DNA of 64,000 nucleotides. It comes from Collinsella sp. Lineage in GTDB: Bacteria > Actinomycetota > Coriobacteriia > Coriobacteriales > Coriobacteriaceae. The notes beneath the pieces were generated by a model, which saw only the letters and a list, made by a program, of their open reading frames with translations, was not told where the DNA came from and made no database searches. Both the position numbers and the translations under genes were made by a program. Below, piece after piece: positions 1-63,888 of this stretch. Location of the stretch: NCBI GenBank assembly GCA_018363345.1, contig JAGZNZ010000002.1:13529-77528 (forward strand), read 5' to 3'. The first letter of the stretch is position 1, and each line of letters begins with the position of its first letter.

Positions 1-1617
1 ATGCTGCGGGCCTCGCGGATCTTGTAGCCGATCTTCTCGTCGCGATCGTCGCAGACCACGCGAATGCCGGCCTCCTCCAGCTTGGCGCACACCTCATGGG
101 CGTAGTCGCGGCTCTTCTCGGAAACCGGAAGTGCCTTGACCTGCACGGGAGCCAGCCAGGTGGGGAACTTGCCCGCAAAGTGCTCAATCAGAATACCAAT
201 AAAGCGCTCGATAGAGCCAAAGCACACGCGATGCAGCATGATGGGACGCTTCTTGGTGCCGTCGGCGTCCACGTACTCCAAGTCAAAGTTGAGCGGCATC
301 TGGAAGTCGAGCTGCACGGTACCGCACTGCCAGGTACGGCCGAGCGAGTCCTCCAGGTGGAAGTCGATCTTGGGGCCGTAGAAGGCGCCGTCGCCCTCGT
401 TGACCTCGTAGTCCATGCCCAGCTTCTCCAGAGCGGTGCGCAGGCCCTCCTCGGCGCGCGCCCAGTCCTCGTCCGAACCCATGGAGTCCTCGGGGCGGGT
501 GGAAAGCTCAACGTGGTACTTAAAGCCAAACTTCTGGTACACGGAGTCGATAAGGTTGACCACGCCCACGATCTCGTCGGTCAGCTGGTCGGGACGCACA
601 AACAGGTGGGCATCGTCCTGGTTAAAGCAGCGCACGCGGAACAGGCCGTGCAGGGCACCGCGCAGCTCGTGGCGGTGCACCAGGCCAATCTCACCGGCGC
701 GAATGGGCAGCTCGCGATAGGAGTGCGGCTTGGAGGCGTACACCAACACGCCGCCCGGGCAGTTCATGGGCTTAATGCAGTACTCTTCGTCGTCGATGAC
801 GGTGGAGTACATGTTGTCCTTGTAGTGGTCCCAGTGGCCCGAGGTCTTCCACAGCTGCTTGTTCATGATGAGCGGCGTGGAGATCTCCACGTAGCCGGCC
901 TTGTGGTGGATCTCTCGCCAGTAGTCCAGCAGCGTGTTCTTAAGGATCATGCCGTTGGGCAGGAAGAACGGGAAGCCGGGGGCCTCGTCGCGCATCATAA
1001 AGAGGTCCATCTCGCGGCCGATCTTGCGGTGATCGCGCTTCTTGGCCTCCTCCAGCATGTGCATGTGCTCATCGAGCTCTTCCTTGGTGGCAAAGGCGAC
1101 GCCGTTGATGCGGGTGAGCATCTTGTTGTCCTTGTCGCCCTTCCAGTAGGCGCCCGAAACGCCGGTGAGCTTAAAGGCCTTCAGCGCCTTGGTGTAGCAG
1201 ATGTGGGGGCCGACGCACATGTCGATGTAGTCGCCCTGCTGGTAGAAGGTGATGCGGGCGTCGTCGTCCAGGTCGCCGATGTGCTCGACCTTGTACTTCT
1301 CGCCGCGCTCCTCCATAAGGGCGATGGCCTCGGCGCGAGGCTTCTCGTACACGGTGAACTTGAGGTTCTCCTTGACGATCTTTTTCATCTCGGCCTCGAT
1401 CGCGGGGAAGTCGTCCTCGCTGATCTTGACGCCCTCGGGCAGGTCGACGTCGTAGTAGAAGCCGTTGTCGGTCGCGGGGCCGTATGCAAAGTCGGCCTGG
1501 GGGTACAGGCGCTTGATGGCCTGCGCCATGATGTGCGCGGCGGAGTGGCGGATGACGTGCGTGACCTCGTCCTGCGGGAGCTCGGCCACCGAACCGTCAT
1601 TGTAGAGTGCCTTCATG
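1..1617 (-). CDS. thrS: Threonyl-tRNA synthetase (ThrRS), N-terminal about 539 codons; the C-terminus lies beyond the window start.
   Basis: Minus-strand translation from the ATG at 1615-1617 gives MKALYNDGSVAELPQDEVT...HVIRHSAAHIMAQAIKRLYP, the ThrRS N-terminal TGS/editing signature. The ORF runs off the window edge; the long plus-strand ORF 96..2543 is its antisense artefact. Confidence 0.8.
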
Positions 1618-1714
1618 GGTATATTTTCTCCTCTCGGATGCCTGATGCAAGTGCGCGCGATGCGCTAGTCGTTTTAACTTGCATCATTATAGGCAGGTTG
1701 CCTTGGTATACAAG

Positions 1715-1745
1715 CGCCCGCCGCACCTTAATGGCACGGCGGGCG
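1715..1745. terminator. GC-rich hairpin (9-bp stem CGCCCGCCG/CGGCGGGCG) between the zinc-ribbon gene and thrS; possible terminator for the 1845..2276 gene.
   Basis: Perfect inverted repeat read directly, followed by ATTTTCT on the plus strand and only a weak T-run on the minus strand. Confidence 0.3.
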
Positions 1746-1844
1746 ATTTTCTACGCATGCTTCATCGTGTGGGGCGGGTTGCGCGTGTGGCTTGCGCGGG
1801 ACGCGCGGTGCCCGTGGCTTGCGACCGGCCCGGCGATGGATGCG

Positions 1845-2276
1845 TTACTGGATGCGAGTTCGGCAGTAGGGGCAGACCTTCCAGTGCGCATCGAGCGGGC
1901 GATGGCAGCTGGGGCATACGTTGCGAACCTGGGTATCGCACACCGGGCAGACGACGAAGTCCTTCTCGATGGGCGCGCCGCACTGCGGGCAGGTGCCGTA
2001 CTGGGCAAGCTGGCGCTCGCGCAGAGCCATGTCCAGCTCCTGCTCCTCGCGGTCGGAGGCGTAGGAGTGCGGACGCAGGACCAGGTAGGCAATGAGGCCC
2101 ACAAACGGGATGAGGGCGATGATGCCCCATGCCACGTAGGCGCTGGCGCCGCGGCGGCGAGCGTCGATGAACACATAGACGACCGACAGCACGTACAGGG
2201 CGATGATAAAGCCAACGAAGGCATAGACGACGCCCATAAGCTGCGGCGACATGAGCTCGGAGATGTACTTGGACAT
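1845..2276 (-). CDS. Small membrane protein with two N-terminal TM helices and a C-terminal double zinc ribbon (CPQCG...CPVCD...CPSCH...CPYC).
   Basis: 143-aa ORF with a hydrophobic N-terminal half and four CxxC pairs in the C-terminal 50 aa. No close named family recognised. Confidence 0.55.
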   Translation of the reverse strand: MSKYISELMSPQLMGVVYAFVGFIIALYVLSVVYVFIDARRRGASAYVAWGIIALIPFVGLIAYLVLRPHSYASDREEQELDMALRERQLAQYGTCPQCGAPIEKDFVVCPVCDTQVRNVCPSCHRPLDAHWKVCPYCRTRIQ

Positions 2277-2376
2277 TACGGGTACCTTTCGGAATATTTA
2301 CAGTACGGTCAAGTTTACCACGGGGTTTGTTTATATGGGACTACGGCTAGGGACGGGGCTGGTGCGGACACAAACA

Positions 2377-2714
2377 TCTCAATCTGTAACAGGTGGAGGC
2401 GAAATCCGGGTCTAGGTGTTACAGATCGAGACGAACGGAAGGGGCGCCAGACTAACGTCTCAATCTGTAACATCTGGAACCCAAATCCTCGTCTAACTGT
2501 TACAGATCGAGACATTCAAAATCCGCCGGAAGGTTTGTCTTGATCTGTAACATCTAGAACCCAAATCCTCAGCTAGCTGTTCCAGATCGAGACATACGAA
2601 TAACCCGACGGGCTAACGTCTCGATCTGTAACAGTAGGACCGCAATTCCCCTCCTACTGTTACAGATCGAGACGAACGTGCGCCCGTGGTCTCAACATCT
2701 CAATCTGTAACAGG
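2377..2714. repeat. Tandem array of 4.5 units with an exact 80-bp period. Each unit is a hairpin with conserved 16-nt arms GTCTC(A/G)ATCTGTAACA ... TGTTACAGATCGAGAC, a semi-conserved ~25-nt loop (GGAnC..AAATCC..GTCTA) and a ~24-nt variable inter-unit segment.
   Basis: Left arms at 2377, 2457, 2537, 2618 and 2697; right arms at 2417-2432, 2497-2513, 2577-2593 and 2657-2673; the fifth unit is truncated after its left arm. The arms are reverse complements of each other. Confidence 0.85.
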
Positions 2715-2870: not shown

Positions 2871-2885
2871 TTGACAGCCTGTCAA
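2871..2885. promoter_or_regulatory. Perfect palindrome TTGACAGCCTGTCAA 18 bp upstream of the first FAD-oxidoreductase gene; candidate operator and/or -35 element.
   Basis: Palindrome read directly; it begins with TTGACA. The RBS GGGAGG lies at 2893-2898 and the GTG start at 2903. Confidence 0.3.
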
Positions 2886-2902: not shown

Positions 2903-4357
2903 GTGGCAGAAACGTTTGATATCGCAATTGTGGGCGCGGGCATTACCGGGTGCGCCATCGCGAGGCAGCTCGCGCGGTTTGACCTATCCATTTGCGTAGT
3001 CGAGGCGGCTAACGATATTGCGCTGGGCGCGTCGAAGGCCAACGGCGGCCTGGTGCACGCTGGCTACGATCCGGCGGCGGAAACCGTAAAGGCACAGGTC
3101 AACGCCCGTGGCTGCGAGTTGTACGGTACATGGGCGCAGGAGCTGGGCTTTCTGTTCTGCCGCACCGGGTCGATGGTGTTGGGCTTTAACGACGAGGACC
3201 GCACGCATCTGGAGCAGCTGCGGTGCAACGGCCATGTCAACGGTGTTCCCGAGCTGTCGATCGTCGGACCCGACCGCATCCACGAATTAGAGCCGCGTGC
3301 CAGTGCCGATGCAACGTGCGCGTTGTGGTGCCCCTCGACTGGGTTTGTCGACCCGTTTGAGGTTGCCATCGCCGCGCTGGAGAACGCCGTGGCCAACGGG
3401 GTGACGTTTATGCGGTCTGCGCCGGTGGAAGCGATTGAAGTCGCGGGCTCGGGCGACGACGCGCACTTTACGTTGGCGACGCCCGCCGGAGACGTGCGCT
3501 GCCGCTACCTGATCAACGCCGCGGGCAACGGCGCCGCCGACATCTCGCATATGGTGGGCGCCGAGGAGTTCCAGATGGTCTGGCGTCAGGGCAACATCGT
3601 GGTGCTGGATAAGGAACCGCGCACGCTCATGCCGCTCTACCCTGTTCCCACGCCAGTGTCCAAGGGCGTTATCGTCACGGGTACCGTACATGGCAACACC
3701 GTGATTACCGCGACGGCTGCCGTGCGCGAGCCAGGCGACACGCAGACCTACGCGACCGATGTCAACGCGCTCCTGACCGGTGCGCACAAGCTGGTGCCCG
3801 ATCTGGACACGCGTCGCGTGGTGCGCGCGTTTGCCGGCGGTCGACCGGTCATTCAGGGAACGAACGACTTCTTTATTGGGCAGTCGGCCGTGGTGCCGGG
3901 GCTGTTCCAGGCGGCGGGCATCCAGTCGCCGGGCGTGGCGAGCGCACCGGCCATTGCCGAGCGCATGGAGCTTGTGATGCGTGAGGCGGGCGTGGAGCTG
4001 CACGAGCGGGCGGACTGGAACCCAATTCGCCGCGAGCCGGACGACTTTGACCGCGCACCGCTGGCGCGCAAGGAAGAACTCATTGAGTCCGATCCCGCGT
4101 GGGGGCAGATCGTCTGCCGCTGCGAAACGGTGCCCGAGGCCGAGATTGTGGCCGCGATCCGACGCCGTCCGGGCGCGATTTCGGTCGAGGGCGTCAAGCG
4201 CCGCTGCCGCGCCGGCATGGGTCGGTGCCAAAGCGGTTTTTGCCAGAGCCGCGTGGTGGCGATCCTGGCGCGCGAGCTGGGCTGCGACCCCAGCGAAGTG
4301 CTGTTGGAGGATGCCGGATCTTGGCTGGTCGAGGGACCTTTGAAGGGGGTGCGCTAG
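2903..4357 (+). CDS. FAD-dependent oxidoreductase (GlpA/L-2-hydroxyglutarate-oxidase-like) with a C-terminal BFD-like [2Fe-2S] Cys cluster.
   Basis: N-terminal IAIVGAGITGCAIARQL dinucleotide-binding motif; C-terminal CRCETV...CRAGMGRCQSGFC. First gene of the widely conserved three-gene unit FAD-oxidoreductase / FAD-NAD(P) oxidoreductase / DUF1667. Confidence 0.8.
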   Translation: MAETFDIAIVGAGITGCAIARQLARFDLSICVVEAANDIALGASKANGGLVHAGYDPAAETVKAQVNARGCELYGTWAQELGFLFCRTGSMVLGFNDEDRTHLEQLRCNGHVNGVPELSIVGPDRIHELEPRASADATCALWCPSTGFVDPFEVAIAALENAVANGVTFMRSAPVEAIEVAGSGDDAHFTLATPAGDVRCRYLINAAGNGAADISHMVGAEEFQMVWRQGNIVVLDKEPRTLMPLYPVPTPVSKGVIVTGTVHGNTVITATAAVREPGDTQTYATDVNALLTGAHKLVPDLDTRRVVRAFAGGRPVIQGTNDFFIGQSAVVPGLFQAAGIQSPGVASAPAIAERMELVMREAGVELHERADWNPIRREPDDFDRAPLARKEELIESDPAWGQIVCRCETVPEAEIVAAIRRRPGAISVEGVKRRCRAGMGRCQSGFCQSRVVAILARELGCDPSEVLLEDAGSWLVEGPLKGVR

Positions 4358-7533: not shown

Positions 7534-7596
7534 GAGCAAGTCAACTCGAGGCGCAGGGCAGCCAAAAAAGCCCCGTCCCAAATTGACTGCTTTTGA

Positions 7597-7661
7597 GTTG
7601 CGGTGATATACGGACTGTTTGAGGCTTCTGACTTGTACAACAGTCCGTATATCACCGCAAC
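7597..7661. repeat. REP-like hairpin element with a 23-bp perfect stem (GTTGCGGTGATATACGGACTGTT ... AACAGTCCGTATATCACCGCAAC) and a 19-nt loop, in the convergent gap between the peptidase gene and folC.
   Basis: Same family as 63820..63888 and the partial copies at 45293..45360 and 45695..45719 (core AGTTGCGGTGAAATAG...CTATTTCACCGCAACT). Confidence 0.6.
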
Positions 7662-7676
7662 TGATGAGGGGATGGG

Positions 7677-22792: not shown

Positions 22793-22889
22793 TGGCGGGA
22801 ACGTATGTGAATCGAACACATCCAAGACGTTTTGCACGCCTCGCAACGGTTTTGAGGACCGCGGAGCCCACCGGAGCCCATCCGTTCCC
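22793..22889 (-). tRNA. selC: Candidate tRNA-Sec (selC), 97 nt, anticodon UCA.
   Basis: Hand-folded from the minus strand: GGGAACGG acceptor (7 bp plus a G.A mismatch), 6-bp D-stem with a CGGT loop, 5-bp anticodon stem with loop CCUCAAA, a ~7-bp long variable arm, 5-bp T-stem with loop TTCGATT, discriminator G, CCA. Sits between selB and the mobA/mocA gene, the classic selAB-selC context. C33 in place of U33 is atypical. Confidence 0.65.
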
Positions 22890-41255: not shown

Positions 41256-43478
41256 CTACACGATTTGATTCACGTGCGTCTCGTCGTCGAACTTGGCGGC
41301 GCCGGGCTCAACGTCCTGGGGAGCGGCGGCGTCGACCAGAGCCTGCTTGAGCTCGGTGTACTGACGCTCGACTTCGCCCTCGGCCCAGACCTGGTCGGCG
41401 ATTGGATCGACCTGACAGGCGGAGAACTTGTCCTCGGGCGTATGCGAGACCGGGTCGACCTTGTGCATGGTCAGCTCGTTGCACTTGCCGATCCACCACT
41501 GGTAGGTCATATAGACCGTGCCCTTGTTGATACGGTCGCTCACGTCGGCGCGGCTGTATACCTGGCCGCGGCGGCTGTGAATCGAGACGATGTCGCCGTT
41601 CTTGATACCGCGCGCCTGGGCATCCGCGGGATTCATGCGGACAAAGCCGGGCTCGTCGGCGAGCAGCGCCAGCGTCTTGCAGTTGCCAGTCATCGAGCGG
41701 CAGCTGTAGTGGCCGACCTCACGGACGGTGCACAGGATGAGCGGGTACTCATCGTCGGGAAGCTCGGAGGGCGCCTCCCAGTCGTGCGCCATCAGGTTGG
41801 CGCGGCCGTCCTTGGTGGTGAACTTGCCACCAGCGAACATGTCGGGCGTACCGTGGTCGTTCACATCGGTGCTCTTGACGGGCCACTGGGCGTAGCCGCC
41901 CTCGGGAGCCATCTTCTCGTAGGTCGCGCCCACAAAGTTGGGGCACAGGCTAATGCACTCGTTCCAGATCTGCTCGGTGTTGTCGTAGTGCATGGGATAG
42001 CCCATACGCGTGGACAGGTCCGCGAAGATCTCCCAGTCGTGACGGCACTCGCCCTTGGGCGGAACGGCCGCGTCAAAGTGCTGGAAGCTACGGTCGGATG
42101 CAGTAAAGACACCCTCGTGCTCGCCCCAAGAGGTAGCGGGCAGGATGACGTCGGCGAGCATGGTCGTCTGCGTCATAAAGATGTCCTGGCAAATGAACAG
42201 ATCCAGCTCGGAGAGCGTCTTGCGCATACCGGCCGAATCGGGCTCGGTCTGCACCGGGTCCTCGCCGTAGTTGTAGAAGCAGTGCACCTTGCCCTCGTCG
42301 ACCAGGTGACCCAGGTCGGTGAGCTTGTAGCCCTCCTCCAAGGGGAGCTTTTCCTCGGGCACGCCCCAAGCCTTGGCAAACTTGGCGCGAGCGGCGGGGT
42401 CGGTGACTTTCTGGTAGCCAGGGTACAGGTTGGGCAGCATGCCCATATCGCAGGAGCCCTGGACGTTGTTCTGGCCACGCACGGGCGCGAGGCCGGAGTT
42501 GGGTTTGCCGATCTGGCCGGCAACGCAGGCGATGGAGGCGATGGTGTGCACCGTCTTCAGGTTCTGCTTCTGCTGGCATACGCCCATGCCCCAGCCAATG
42601 ATGGCAGAAGGCTTCGCCGTGGCGTACATCTCGGCAGCTTGGTGGATCAGCGCGGGATCGACACCCGTGATGTCCTGTACGGATTCGGGAGTGTAGTTCT
42701 TGATGGTCTCCCACCACTCGTCAAAGCCGTTCGTGTGCTCGGCGACGAATTCCTTGTCGTAGAGGCCATCGTTGACCAGACAGTTGGCAAAGGCGTTGAG
42801 GAACGCGACATTGCAACCGTTCTTGATCGGAAGGTAGATATCGGCGATACGCGCAGTTTCGATATGGCGCGGGTCGGCGACGATGATCTTGCAACCCTTT
42901 TCTTTGGCTCGCACGATACGCCTTGCGACGATGGGGTGCGAATCGGCAGGGTTATAGCCGAAGAGGAAAATGCAGCCCGCATCCTCCATACCGGGGATGG
43001 AGCATGACATGCAACCTGAACCAACCGTGTCCATCAGACCGAGGACAGTAGGGCCGTGTCAAGTACGGGCGCAGTTGTCCACGCTGTGGGTGCCGATGCA
43101 CGCACGCGTAAACTTCTGCATGACGTAGTTCGCCTCATTGCCGCCGCCTCGCGAAGAGCCGGTGGTCATGACAGCGTTAGGACCATATTCGTCAATTATG
43201 GCCTGCATCTTAGATGCGGTGAAATCCAGTGCCTCGTCCCAGCTTACGCGCTCAAGATCCGCGCCCTTGGTGCGGCGGATCATCGGGTGCAGTACGCGAG
43301 GAGTCAAGATCTTGGTGTCGTTGATGAAGTCGTAGCCGCTCATGCCCTTAAGGCACAGCTCGCCCTGATTGGTGATGCCGTTGAGCGGTTCGGTACCCAC
43401 GACCTGGCCGTTTTGGACCAAGAGGTTAAACTGGCAACCGGCACCGCAGTACGGGCAGATCACTTTATGCTTCTCCAT
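41256..43478 (-). CDS. fdhF: Formate dehydrogenase H (FdhF) selenoprotein: a single ~740-codon frame with an in-frame UGA (selenocysteine) at 43059-43061.
   Basis: The two track ORFs 43059..43586 and 41256..43034 are one frame: ...VDNCART-U-HGPTVLGLMDTVGSGC..., matching E. coli FdhF VDNCARVUHGPSVA. N-terminal CPYCGAGC [4Fe-4S] motif. ATG at 43478 has an AAGGAGG RBS. Confidence 0.9.
43021..43052 (-). promoter_or_regulatory. Candidate bacterial SECIS hairpin starting 6 nt 3' of the fdhF UGA (mRNA CCCUACUGUCCUCGGUCUGAUGGACACGGUUGG; apical GGUCUG as in the E. coli fdhF SECIS).
   Basis: Hand-folded; imperfect stem with GGUCUG in the apical region. Position and motif resemble the E. coli element. 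Confidence 0.4.
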
Positions 43479-45272: not shown

Positions 45273-45292
45273 CCCCATCCCCTCCTAAGTTG

Positions 45293-45360
45293 CGGTGAAA
45301 TAGTTCCTAGATTAGGCTTATTCGCGCTTTTCAGAAATTAATTAACCGCAACTTCCAGGT
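45293..45360. repeat. Partial or disrupted copy of the AGTTGCGGTGAAATAG REP-like hairpin (intact left arm, truncated right arm AACCGCAACTT).
   Basis: Starts 20 nt after the PIN gene stop. Same terminal motif CCTAAGTTGCGGTGAAATAG as at 63813. Confidence 0.5.
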
Positions 45361-45694: not shown

Positions 45695-45719
45695 GACAGT
45701 CCGTATTTAACCGCAACTT
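45695..45719. repeat. Right-arm-only copy of the REP-like hairpin (ACAGTCCGTATTTAACCGCAACTT), preceded by CAAAAAGCCCGCTCCAAATTAGCT, which matches the sequence preceding copy 7597..7661.
   Basis: Read directly. Confidence 0.45.
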
Positions 45720-63819: not shown

Positions 63820-63888
63820 AAGTTGCGGTGAAATAGGGACTGTTTATGCAGCTAAAGCCGCAAAACAGTCCCTATTTCACCGCAACTT
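63820..63888. repeat. REP-like hairpin, full copy (24-bp stem AAGTTGCGGTGAAATAGGGACTGTT ... AACAGTCCCTATTTCACCGCAACTT, 19-nt loop), 9 nt after the lipid-kinase stop.
   Basis: Same family as 7597..7661, with the same CCTAAGTTGCGGTG junction as at 45286. Confidence 0.6.

Follow-up and report, generated by a model that had tools for sequence, protein, structure and literature searches.

A tandem hairpin array in Collinsella is probably one locus of a genus-wide palindromic repeat family with protein-recognised arms

A tandem array of hairpins between two divergently oriented genes raises the question of whether it serves those genes or belongs to something larger than the locus. The array considered here lies in a 64,000-nucleotide stretch of DNA from a Collinsella sp., hereafter the window. 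A sequence-only reading of that stretch had offered three kinds of role for it: a multi-hairpin regulatory RNA or sRNA array, a protein-binding array, or a structured satellite. The answer that we favour, with somewhat better than even confidence, is that the array belongs to a family of palindromic repeats interspersed in genomes across Collinsella, the arms of which are probably sites for a sequence-specific protein. The best reading of the family is that it is new, restricted to the genus and similar in kind to REP/BIME elements. The protein-binding array and the structured satellite both fit this answer, whereas the regulatory RNA or sRNA array is unsupported. In particular, the array as a dedicated riboregulator of the adjacent glycerol-phosphate-type oxidoreductase operon is not supported, which removes a false lead.

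The tandem hairpin array itself is real. The 16-mer RTCTCRATCTGTAACA is present in nine copies of strictly alternating orientation, and a search with GTCTCRATCTGTAACA at zero or one mismatch places the arms at 2376, 2417 (minus strand), 2457, 2498 (minus), 2537, 2578 (minus), 2618, 2658 (minus) and 2697. By chance, about 0.33 matches to GTCTCRATCTGTAACA with up to three mismatches would be expected in the entire 64-kb window, and none of 100 shuffled sequences equalled nine. The arms make up four complete hairpin units of 56-57 bp plus one extra arm (Table 1), repeating every 79-81 bp; Tandem Repeats Finder gives 3.8 copies at a period of 80-81. The period had been described as exactly 80 bp, and it is indeed near that value but not exact: successive plus arms are 81, 80, 81 and 79 bp apart, the loops measure 25, 25, 25 and 24 nt, and the linkers 24, 23, 24 and 23 nt. 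Likewise, the 16-bp stems that had been described are perfect in unit 4 only, with an A.C mismatch at arm position 6 in units 1 and 2 and both a wobble pair and a mismatch in unit 3. Both strands fold far more stably than shuffled sequence (z = -11.5 and -12.2). As each right arm pairs equally well with the next left arm, two registers are possible; the hairpin register is the correct one, because arrays throughout the family start and finish with complete loop-centred units. The flanking genes, a double-zinc-ribbon gene on the minus strand and an oxidoreductase operon on the plus strand, are as originally described, and so is the architecture, in which the repeats form inverted pairs and are not direct as in CRISPR, with alternating arms and variable loops and linkers.

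Table 1. Features of the array and its surroundings; positions are those of the window unless preceded by a locus label (L and a number)
Feature	Position	Strand	Remarks
Spurious 815-aa ORF	96-2543	+	crosses the array
Double-zinc-ribbon membrane protein gene	1845..2276	-	100 bp from array
Whole array	2376..2712	.	nine alternating 16-nt arms = four palindromic units and a terminal arm
Unit 1	2376..2432	.	ATCTCAATCTGTAACA / 25-nt loop / TGTTACAGATCGAGAC; common to 5/7 orthologous arrays in other species
Linker 1	2433..2456	.	24 nt, variable sequence, AWW...WWT-type ends
Unit 2	2457..2513	.	
Linker 2	2514..2536	.	23 nt; orthologous copies in L023, L091, L117; diverged copy in L004
Unit 3	2537..2593	.	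one mismatch in each arm; loop 21/25 identical to unit 2 loop
Linker 3	2594..2617	.	24 nt
Unit 4	2618..2673	.	24-nt loop; perfect 23-bp stem 2617-2639/2652-2674
Linker 4	2674..2696	.	23 nt
Terminal lone arm	2697..2712	+	ATCTCAATCTGTAACA, identical to first arm; half unit also in ortholog L004
Perfect 7-1-7 palindrome	2871-2885		candidate operator
First gene of operon (DAO/BFD oxidoreductase, Pyr_redox_2, DUF1667)	2903..4357	+	190 bp from array
Second palindromic family, copies	7596-7662; 45288-45353; 63821-63887		
Second palindromic family, lone arms	43212-43226; 45704-45718		
Selenocysteine tRNA gene	22797-22889	-	Rfam, 64.6 bits
Duplicates bracketing an ATPase gene	L035 4609-4854, 6033-6302; L043 2290-2560, 3710-3990		
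364-aa protein without Pfam match	L013 5004-6098; L041 4917-6011; L054 1001-2095		
IMG/VR contigs and the chromosomal contexts that they match	L137, L140, L149, L152, L154 vs L039/L100; L153, L158 vs L080/L108		

The sequence-only reading had proposed a comparison of unit number between strains. Seven orthologous arrays from other Collinsella species lie between the same two flanking genes and comprise from 1.5 to 8 units (8 in L023). Recognisable units and linkers follow one another in the same order, the first unit being mostly the same as that of the window, while whole units are missing or duplicated. These common, ordered units point to vertical inheritance at the window site, with unit turnover by recombination or slippage between identical arms. 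More generally, arrays persist at orthologous sites in different species and change there by the gain and loss of whole units. Between collinear orthologous arrays, differences per site were 0.017 at the 13 constrained arm positions, compared with 0.13 at arm positions 1, 5 and 6, 0.107 in loops, 0.138 in linkers and 0.199 in the outer flanks, so that loops, linkers and flanks change 6-11 times faster than the 13 positions. Gene conversion is not homogenising the arms, since orthologous arms have the same variants at positions 1, 5 and 6. Purifying selection on the arms at orthologous sites is thus clearly indicated by the sequence comparison. In addition, 81% of arms show no deviation at any of the 13 constrained positions, and degenerate arm slots amount to just 8 of 743. 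An outgroup locus was sought through homologs of the oxidoreductase, and the best 120 were all Collinsella, at least 92% identical over their full length, with no outgroup among them.

The unit is by no means confined to this site. A scan with the pattern ATCTGTAACA-N(10-40)-TGTTACAGAT in one genome per species returned at least 120 loci, and nearly all of those listed are titled Collinsella, the remainder being unnamed or probably mis-binned MAGs. The listed loci hold 806 arms in 152 arrays of 1-8 units, among which 1, 2, 3 and 4 units are the common sizes, and in almost all of the 152 arrays the arms alternate regularly, with a plus arm first and a minus arm last. Clustering by flanking sequence distinguished at least 23 unrelated genomic contexts, several of them with two array sites. 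Gene calls based simply on codon usage put no array inside a gene; about 7 sites separate divergent genes, about 10 convergent and about 9 tandem ones. The genes that they flank or bracket are unrelated (NRAMP, phosphoglycerate mutase, an AAA ATPase, membrane proteins, a 364-aa protein without Pfam match), and a cassette- or integron-like role of arrays around single genes was accordingly rejected. Arrays with common flanks are segmental duplications, because the 3' end of a gene, the array and a terminator are duplicated together.

The sequence-only reading had held that a motif abundant genome-wide as a generic REP would speak against its proposal. In kind, this is what we find: a dispersed REP-like family in at least 23 contexts across the genus, although its copy number is far below that of E. 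coli REPs. C. aerofaciens TSDC17.2-1.1 has three arrays with 17 arms in 400 kb, or about one array per 130 kb, and the window has one per 64 kb; the genome-wide copy number rests on those 400 kb of one strain together with the scan of at least 120 loci. This direct count replaces the '26 places' that BLAST had given for the 0.9-Mb C. aerofaciens record, a figure that overstated abundance because a palindromic unit also aligns with the opposite strand and in a shifted register. It is worth noting that the record in question (NZ_OY725717.1, strain TSDC17.2-1.1, our L128-L135) was deposited as 'plasmid 6', but is a piece of chromosome, since it contains ribosomal-protein operons, rpoBC, tuf, recA and ftsK. 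No Rfam family reached its gathering score with the array, and below threshold there were only chance matches to miRNA hairpins; literature searches on the organism with repeat terms and on the arm sequence found nothing relevant. No such repeat family is present in Rfam or in the literature searched, and we consider it new.

Across the family the consensus reads gWWT / RTCTCRATCTGTAACA / nCTAGn SSSS WWW SSSS nCTAGn / TGTTACAGATYGAGAY / AWWc, a 57-bp unit of two inverted 16-bp arms around a 25-bp centre, which contains CTAG boxes and, in the middle, an A/T tract. The loop core that had been singled out earlier, GGAnC..AAATCC..GTCTA, is present in the window array but is local to it and is not the family-wide loop pattern. 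Units are joined by linkers of 23-24 bp throughout the family. From arm to arm, the distance is 41 nt over the loop in 369 of 385 cases and 39-40 nt over the linker in 247 of 256. The sequences in between are very diverse, with 302 distinct loops among 380 and 197 distinct linkers among 253, and at least 126 loops are set apart from all others by more than 4 of 25 positions. Spacer length must therefore be constrained, because loops and linkers of different sites have diverged past recognition and yet their lengths are nearly invariant. Independent hairpins give no reason to expect a constrained linker length, which would easily be explained by a protein assembly that touches successive arms at fixed DNA distances. 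Helical phasing of A/T tracts, as in DNA wrapping, was considered as well and rejected, Fourier power near a 10-bp period not being significant (p = 0.11-0.19).

Conserved inverted arms may be maintained for their sequence or for the helix that they form. Appreciable arm variation occurs only at positions 1, 5 and 6, and the two sides of the stem vary independently: pair counts at positions 6/52 (GC 99, AT 77, AC 76, GT 70) are as expected under independence, and positions 5/53 have essentially no compensatory pairs. A covariation test on 126 units with unrelated loops, covering the 16-bp stem and its CTAG/CTAG extension, found 87.8% paired versus 88.7% in shuffles and a score of 0.101 versus 0.114, with 500 of 500 shuffles at least as high on both measures, invariant arm positions being by definition unable to reveal covariation. 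Family-wide, units oriented by their central A tract have no excess of G.U over A.C, and a hint of minus-strand transcription given by the G.U and A.C mismatches of the window units was dropped in view of these balanced counts. Since the arms do not covary, the helix is a by-product of two conserved inverted sequences and is not visibly selected. By analogy with RAYT or Cas6, a protein that recognises a folded hairpin of single-stranded DNA or RNA by its sequence would give the same signature.

This leaves it unlikely that the family works as structured RNA, with transcribed hairpins acting as 3'-UTR stabilisers, terminators, RNase III substrates or an sRNA array. E. coli REPs do act as 3'-UTR stabilisers, terminators or RNase III substrates, and two features of the Collinsella arrays would agree with such a function. 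Both strands fold very stably (z about -12), and several arrays begin 9-28 nt past a stop codon and upstream of an intrinsic terminator, which places them in 3' UTRs as a transcribed part of the mRNA. However, other arrays lie past a terminator or between divergent genes, so that array position relative to transcription is inconsistent. The hairpins have no U-tracts and no Rfam match, their arm mismatches (A.C and others) occur at chance frequency with neither covariation nor strand asymmetry between G.U and A.C, and independent hairpins leave the constraint on linker length unexplained. Moreover, the palindrome is symmetric and is used in either orientation, about a quarter of the sites being between divergent genes. 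The original idea of a regulatory RNA tied to the divergent promoter fares no better, as the unit adjoins unrelated genes in every kind of intergenic region.

It is also improbable that the unit is a selfish mobile element, MITE- or REPIN-like and moved in trans by a RAYT/Y1 or DDE transposase, with arrays arising by repeated insertion or duplication. Such an origin would suit a palindromic unit with terminal inverted arms that is dispersed, intergenic and found in one genus only, and A/T-rich triplets indeed flank every unit, with AAAC on both sides of some arrays. Nevertheless, the flanks contain no consistent direct repeat that could be a target-site duplication, 4-nt flanks matching at 1.50 of 4 positions in direct and 1.51 of 4 in inverted comparison. 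The sites are orthologous and old, the loops form 126 unrelated lineages, and purifying selection acts on the arms site by site, which is unexpected for dead copies. No empty site was found among the loci collected, a sample biased to occupied sites in which the minimum state is one hairpin; one site was cut down to a single arm by deletion. Nor did a RAYT or a parent IS emerge from 400 kb of C. aerofaciens and 120 array-bearing loci. Arms are absent from the roughly 200 bp around the sole IS200/IS605-family tnpA of the 400 kb, tblastn found no homolog of the C. aerofaciens IS200/IS605 TnpA, a Y1 transposase, in the 120 array-bearing loci, and the ends of the 11 transposase genes annotated in the 400 kb carry no arm-like sequence with up to four mismatches. 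As for other vehicles, the window array has no match in the phage collection, and in the plasmid collection it matches only a mislabelled piece of Collinsella chromosome. A phage origin was rejected, the IMG/VR contigs with true arrays matching chromosomal contexts on one side and only 74 bp on the other.

We regard as quite improbable an operator array through which a transcription factor would control the adjacent genes as a regulon. Operators would have inverted half-sites that are conserved and evenly spaced, and the window copy does lie between divergent promoters, but many sites are in 3' UTRs or between convergent genes, the neighbouring genes have no common function, and one and the same site varies from 1.5 to 8 units between species. 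For the window copy, the search gave a single weak promoter-like site and nothing that resembles a terminator. The oxidoreductase gene has a perfect palindrome, TTGACAG-C-CTGTCAA, 18 nt ahead of its GTG start codon, directly preceding the GGGAGG ribosome-binding site and overlapping a -35-like TTGACA; as a candidate operator, it is the more plausible local regulatory site than the array. The 815-aa ORF that crosses the array is a spurious high-GC ORF without Pfam match, antisense to the threonyl-tRNA synthetase and zinc-ribbon genes. Finally, hypervariable fixed-length segments that alternate regularly with conserved repeats recall a CRISPR-like or guide-bearing array whose loops or linkers are acquired or functional sequences, but this is very improbable indeed, given that the repeats are inverted and not direct, dozens of sites have no recurrent neighbouring gene (none among at least 23 contexts) and no cas family among the neighbours scanned, the loops and linkers obey composition rules (CTAG boxes, A/T tract, AWW ends) and are vertically inherited with point changes, three linker 20-mers have no protospacer match in IMG/VR in a test of low power, and 539 distinct loops and linkers have no significant self-target match in 1.66 Mb of Collinsella DNA, where one borderline 18-nt match is consistent with chance.

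The palindromic repeat family would, by analogy, work most like the REP/BIME elements of E. coli, yet it does not qualify as a REP/RAYT element, as a BIME, as a MITE, as a CRISPR array or as an RNA family already known. With REP/BIME elements, and BIME-2 especially, it shares short conserved sequences that alternate in tandem arrays with fixed-length linkers, as well as a strictly intergenic location, dispersal over the chromosome in many copies and a variable number of units. E. coli BIMEs are bound by host proteins, namely gyrase, IHF and Pol I. In contrast, a REP is itself a palindrome while the 16-nt arm is not self-complementary, and BIME linkers are conserved motifs whereas Collinsella loops and linkers are hypervariable, with a few positions and their length conserved. 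Collinsella has about 40 arms per Mb compared with roughly 600 REPs in E. coli, its sites include divergent promoter regions, and no GTAG/CTAC tag was found in the unit, the conserved motif being CTAG within the loop. The REPIN/RAYT systems of Pseudomonas and E. coli resemble the family in having two inverted conserved sequences around a less conserved spacer as a hairpin-capable doublet, and in their vertical inheritance, long persistence and restriction to a lineage. They differ in that no repeat-flanked RAYT gene was found in the Collinsella sequence covered (the 400 kb and the 120 loci). Furthermore, REPIN stems are reported to have compensatory changes, which the Collinsella stems lack, and REPINs are not known to form regular tandem arrays in which the linker length is constrained.

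Other repeats share fewer traits. MITEs such as Correia/NEMIS, RUP and ERIC are likewise small, non-coding, intergenic and hairpin-capable with terminal inverted repeats, but the Collinsella arrays have no target-site duplication, no unoccupied sites among the loci collected and no parent IS with matching ends among the 11 transposase genes, and their copies are internally unrelated and stand in tandem at a fixed period. Mycobacterial MIRU-type VNTRs, also from an actinobacterium, occupy a few dozen intergenic loci with tandem units some 50-100 bp long, in numbers that vary between lineages. MIRUs are direct repeats oriented with their operon and often carry short ORFs; the Collinsella units, by contrast, are palindromic, accept any gene orientation and repeat every 80-81 bp, a period not divisible by 3. 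In sopC of plasmid F, fixed-period tandem units contain a short inverted repeat recognised by a dimeric DNA-binding protein. The same combination of fixed-period tandem units, each with a short inverted repeat, is seen here, although centromere arrays of the sopC type are single and lie beside partition genes, whereas Collinsella has dozens of chromosomal arrays with no associated gene.

What distinguishes the Collinsella repeats is a REP/BIME architecture combined with CRISPR-like spacing and purifying selection, which speaks for a specific factor that reads every copy. In the mechanism that we propose, the arms would be recognition sites of a host DNA-binding or nucleoid protein, or of a domesticated recombinase or transposase, and this candidate protein would contact both arms of a unit and the neighbouring units at fixed DNA distances. 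Recombination or slippage between identical arms would expand, contract and reshuffle the arrays. Any effect on neighbouring genes would be a by-product of position, where an array forms part of a 3' UTR or of promoter-distal DNA, and not dedicated regulation. More tentatively, we suggest as a possibility that a putative Collinsella protein assembles cooperatively on the arrays, which would then be selected by the host and would be neither junk nor selfish DNA. If this is true, the arrays may, at a few dozen places between genes, act as insulators of topology or transcription or anchor the nucleoid, for which the exact spacing of 25 and 23-24 bp would matter and the intervening sequence would be free, and Actinomycetota would have an element of a new kind that structures the chromosome. 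The genus Collinsella is abundant in the human gut and very diverse, and the 57-bp unit offers a defined bait for finding the predicted binding factor. The arrays are also ready-made VNTR markers for strain typing, and they are a probable cause of assembly breaks in Collinsella MAGs; several of the contigs examined start or end beside an array.

Several minor observations concern the window and individual array sites. A second, unrelated palindromic family is present in the window (Table 1), with arms AGTTGCGGTGAWATAnGGACTGTT and AACAGTCCnTATWTCACCGCAACT separated by about 19 nt. Its stems are perfect and reach 27 bp, and its copies adjoin a conserved TAACCCCAyCCCCTC-like flank. With eight arm matches against 0.07 by chance, it is denser in the window than the array family; it has no matching Rfam family and looks like another REP- or MITE-like element, so that this genome carries several such families. 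The window also encodes a selenocysteine tRNA, and a related C. aerofaciens record encodes a selenium-dependent xanthine dehydrogenase and YgfK. At two array sites one flank matches the chromosome over 1.5 kb and the other over only 74 bp; both sites look as if they lie about 74 bp from prophage junctions, and a tRNA-type attachment site may be involved. In several species, arrays stand a few bases from both the start and the stop codon of a conserved 364-aa protein, whose C-terminus may, judged by eye, resemble DUF559/AbiEi-like proteins. In two loci, an AAA-ATPase gene (AAA_16, with a weak BrxC/D-like match) is found between direct duplicates, each of which combines the 3' end of a gene with a two-unit array and a terminator. 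In sister species (L022 and L048) the duplicated segment is present once and the ATPase gene is missing, which suggests that the gene was inserted by homologous recombination.
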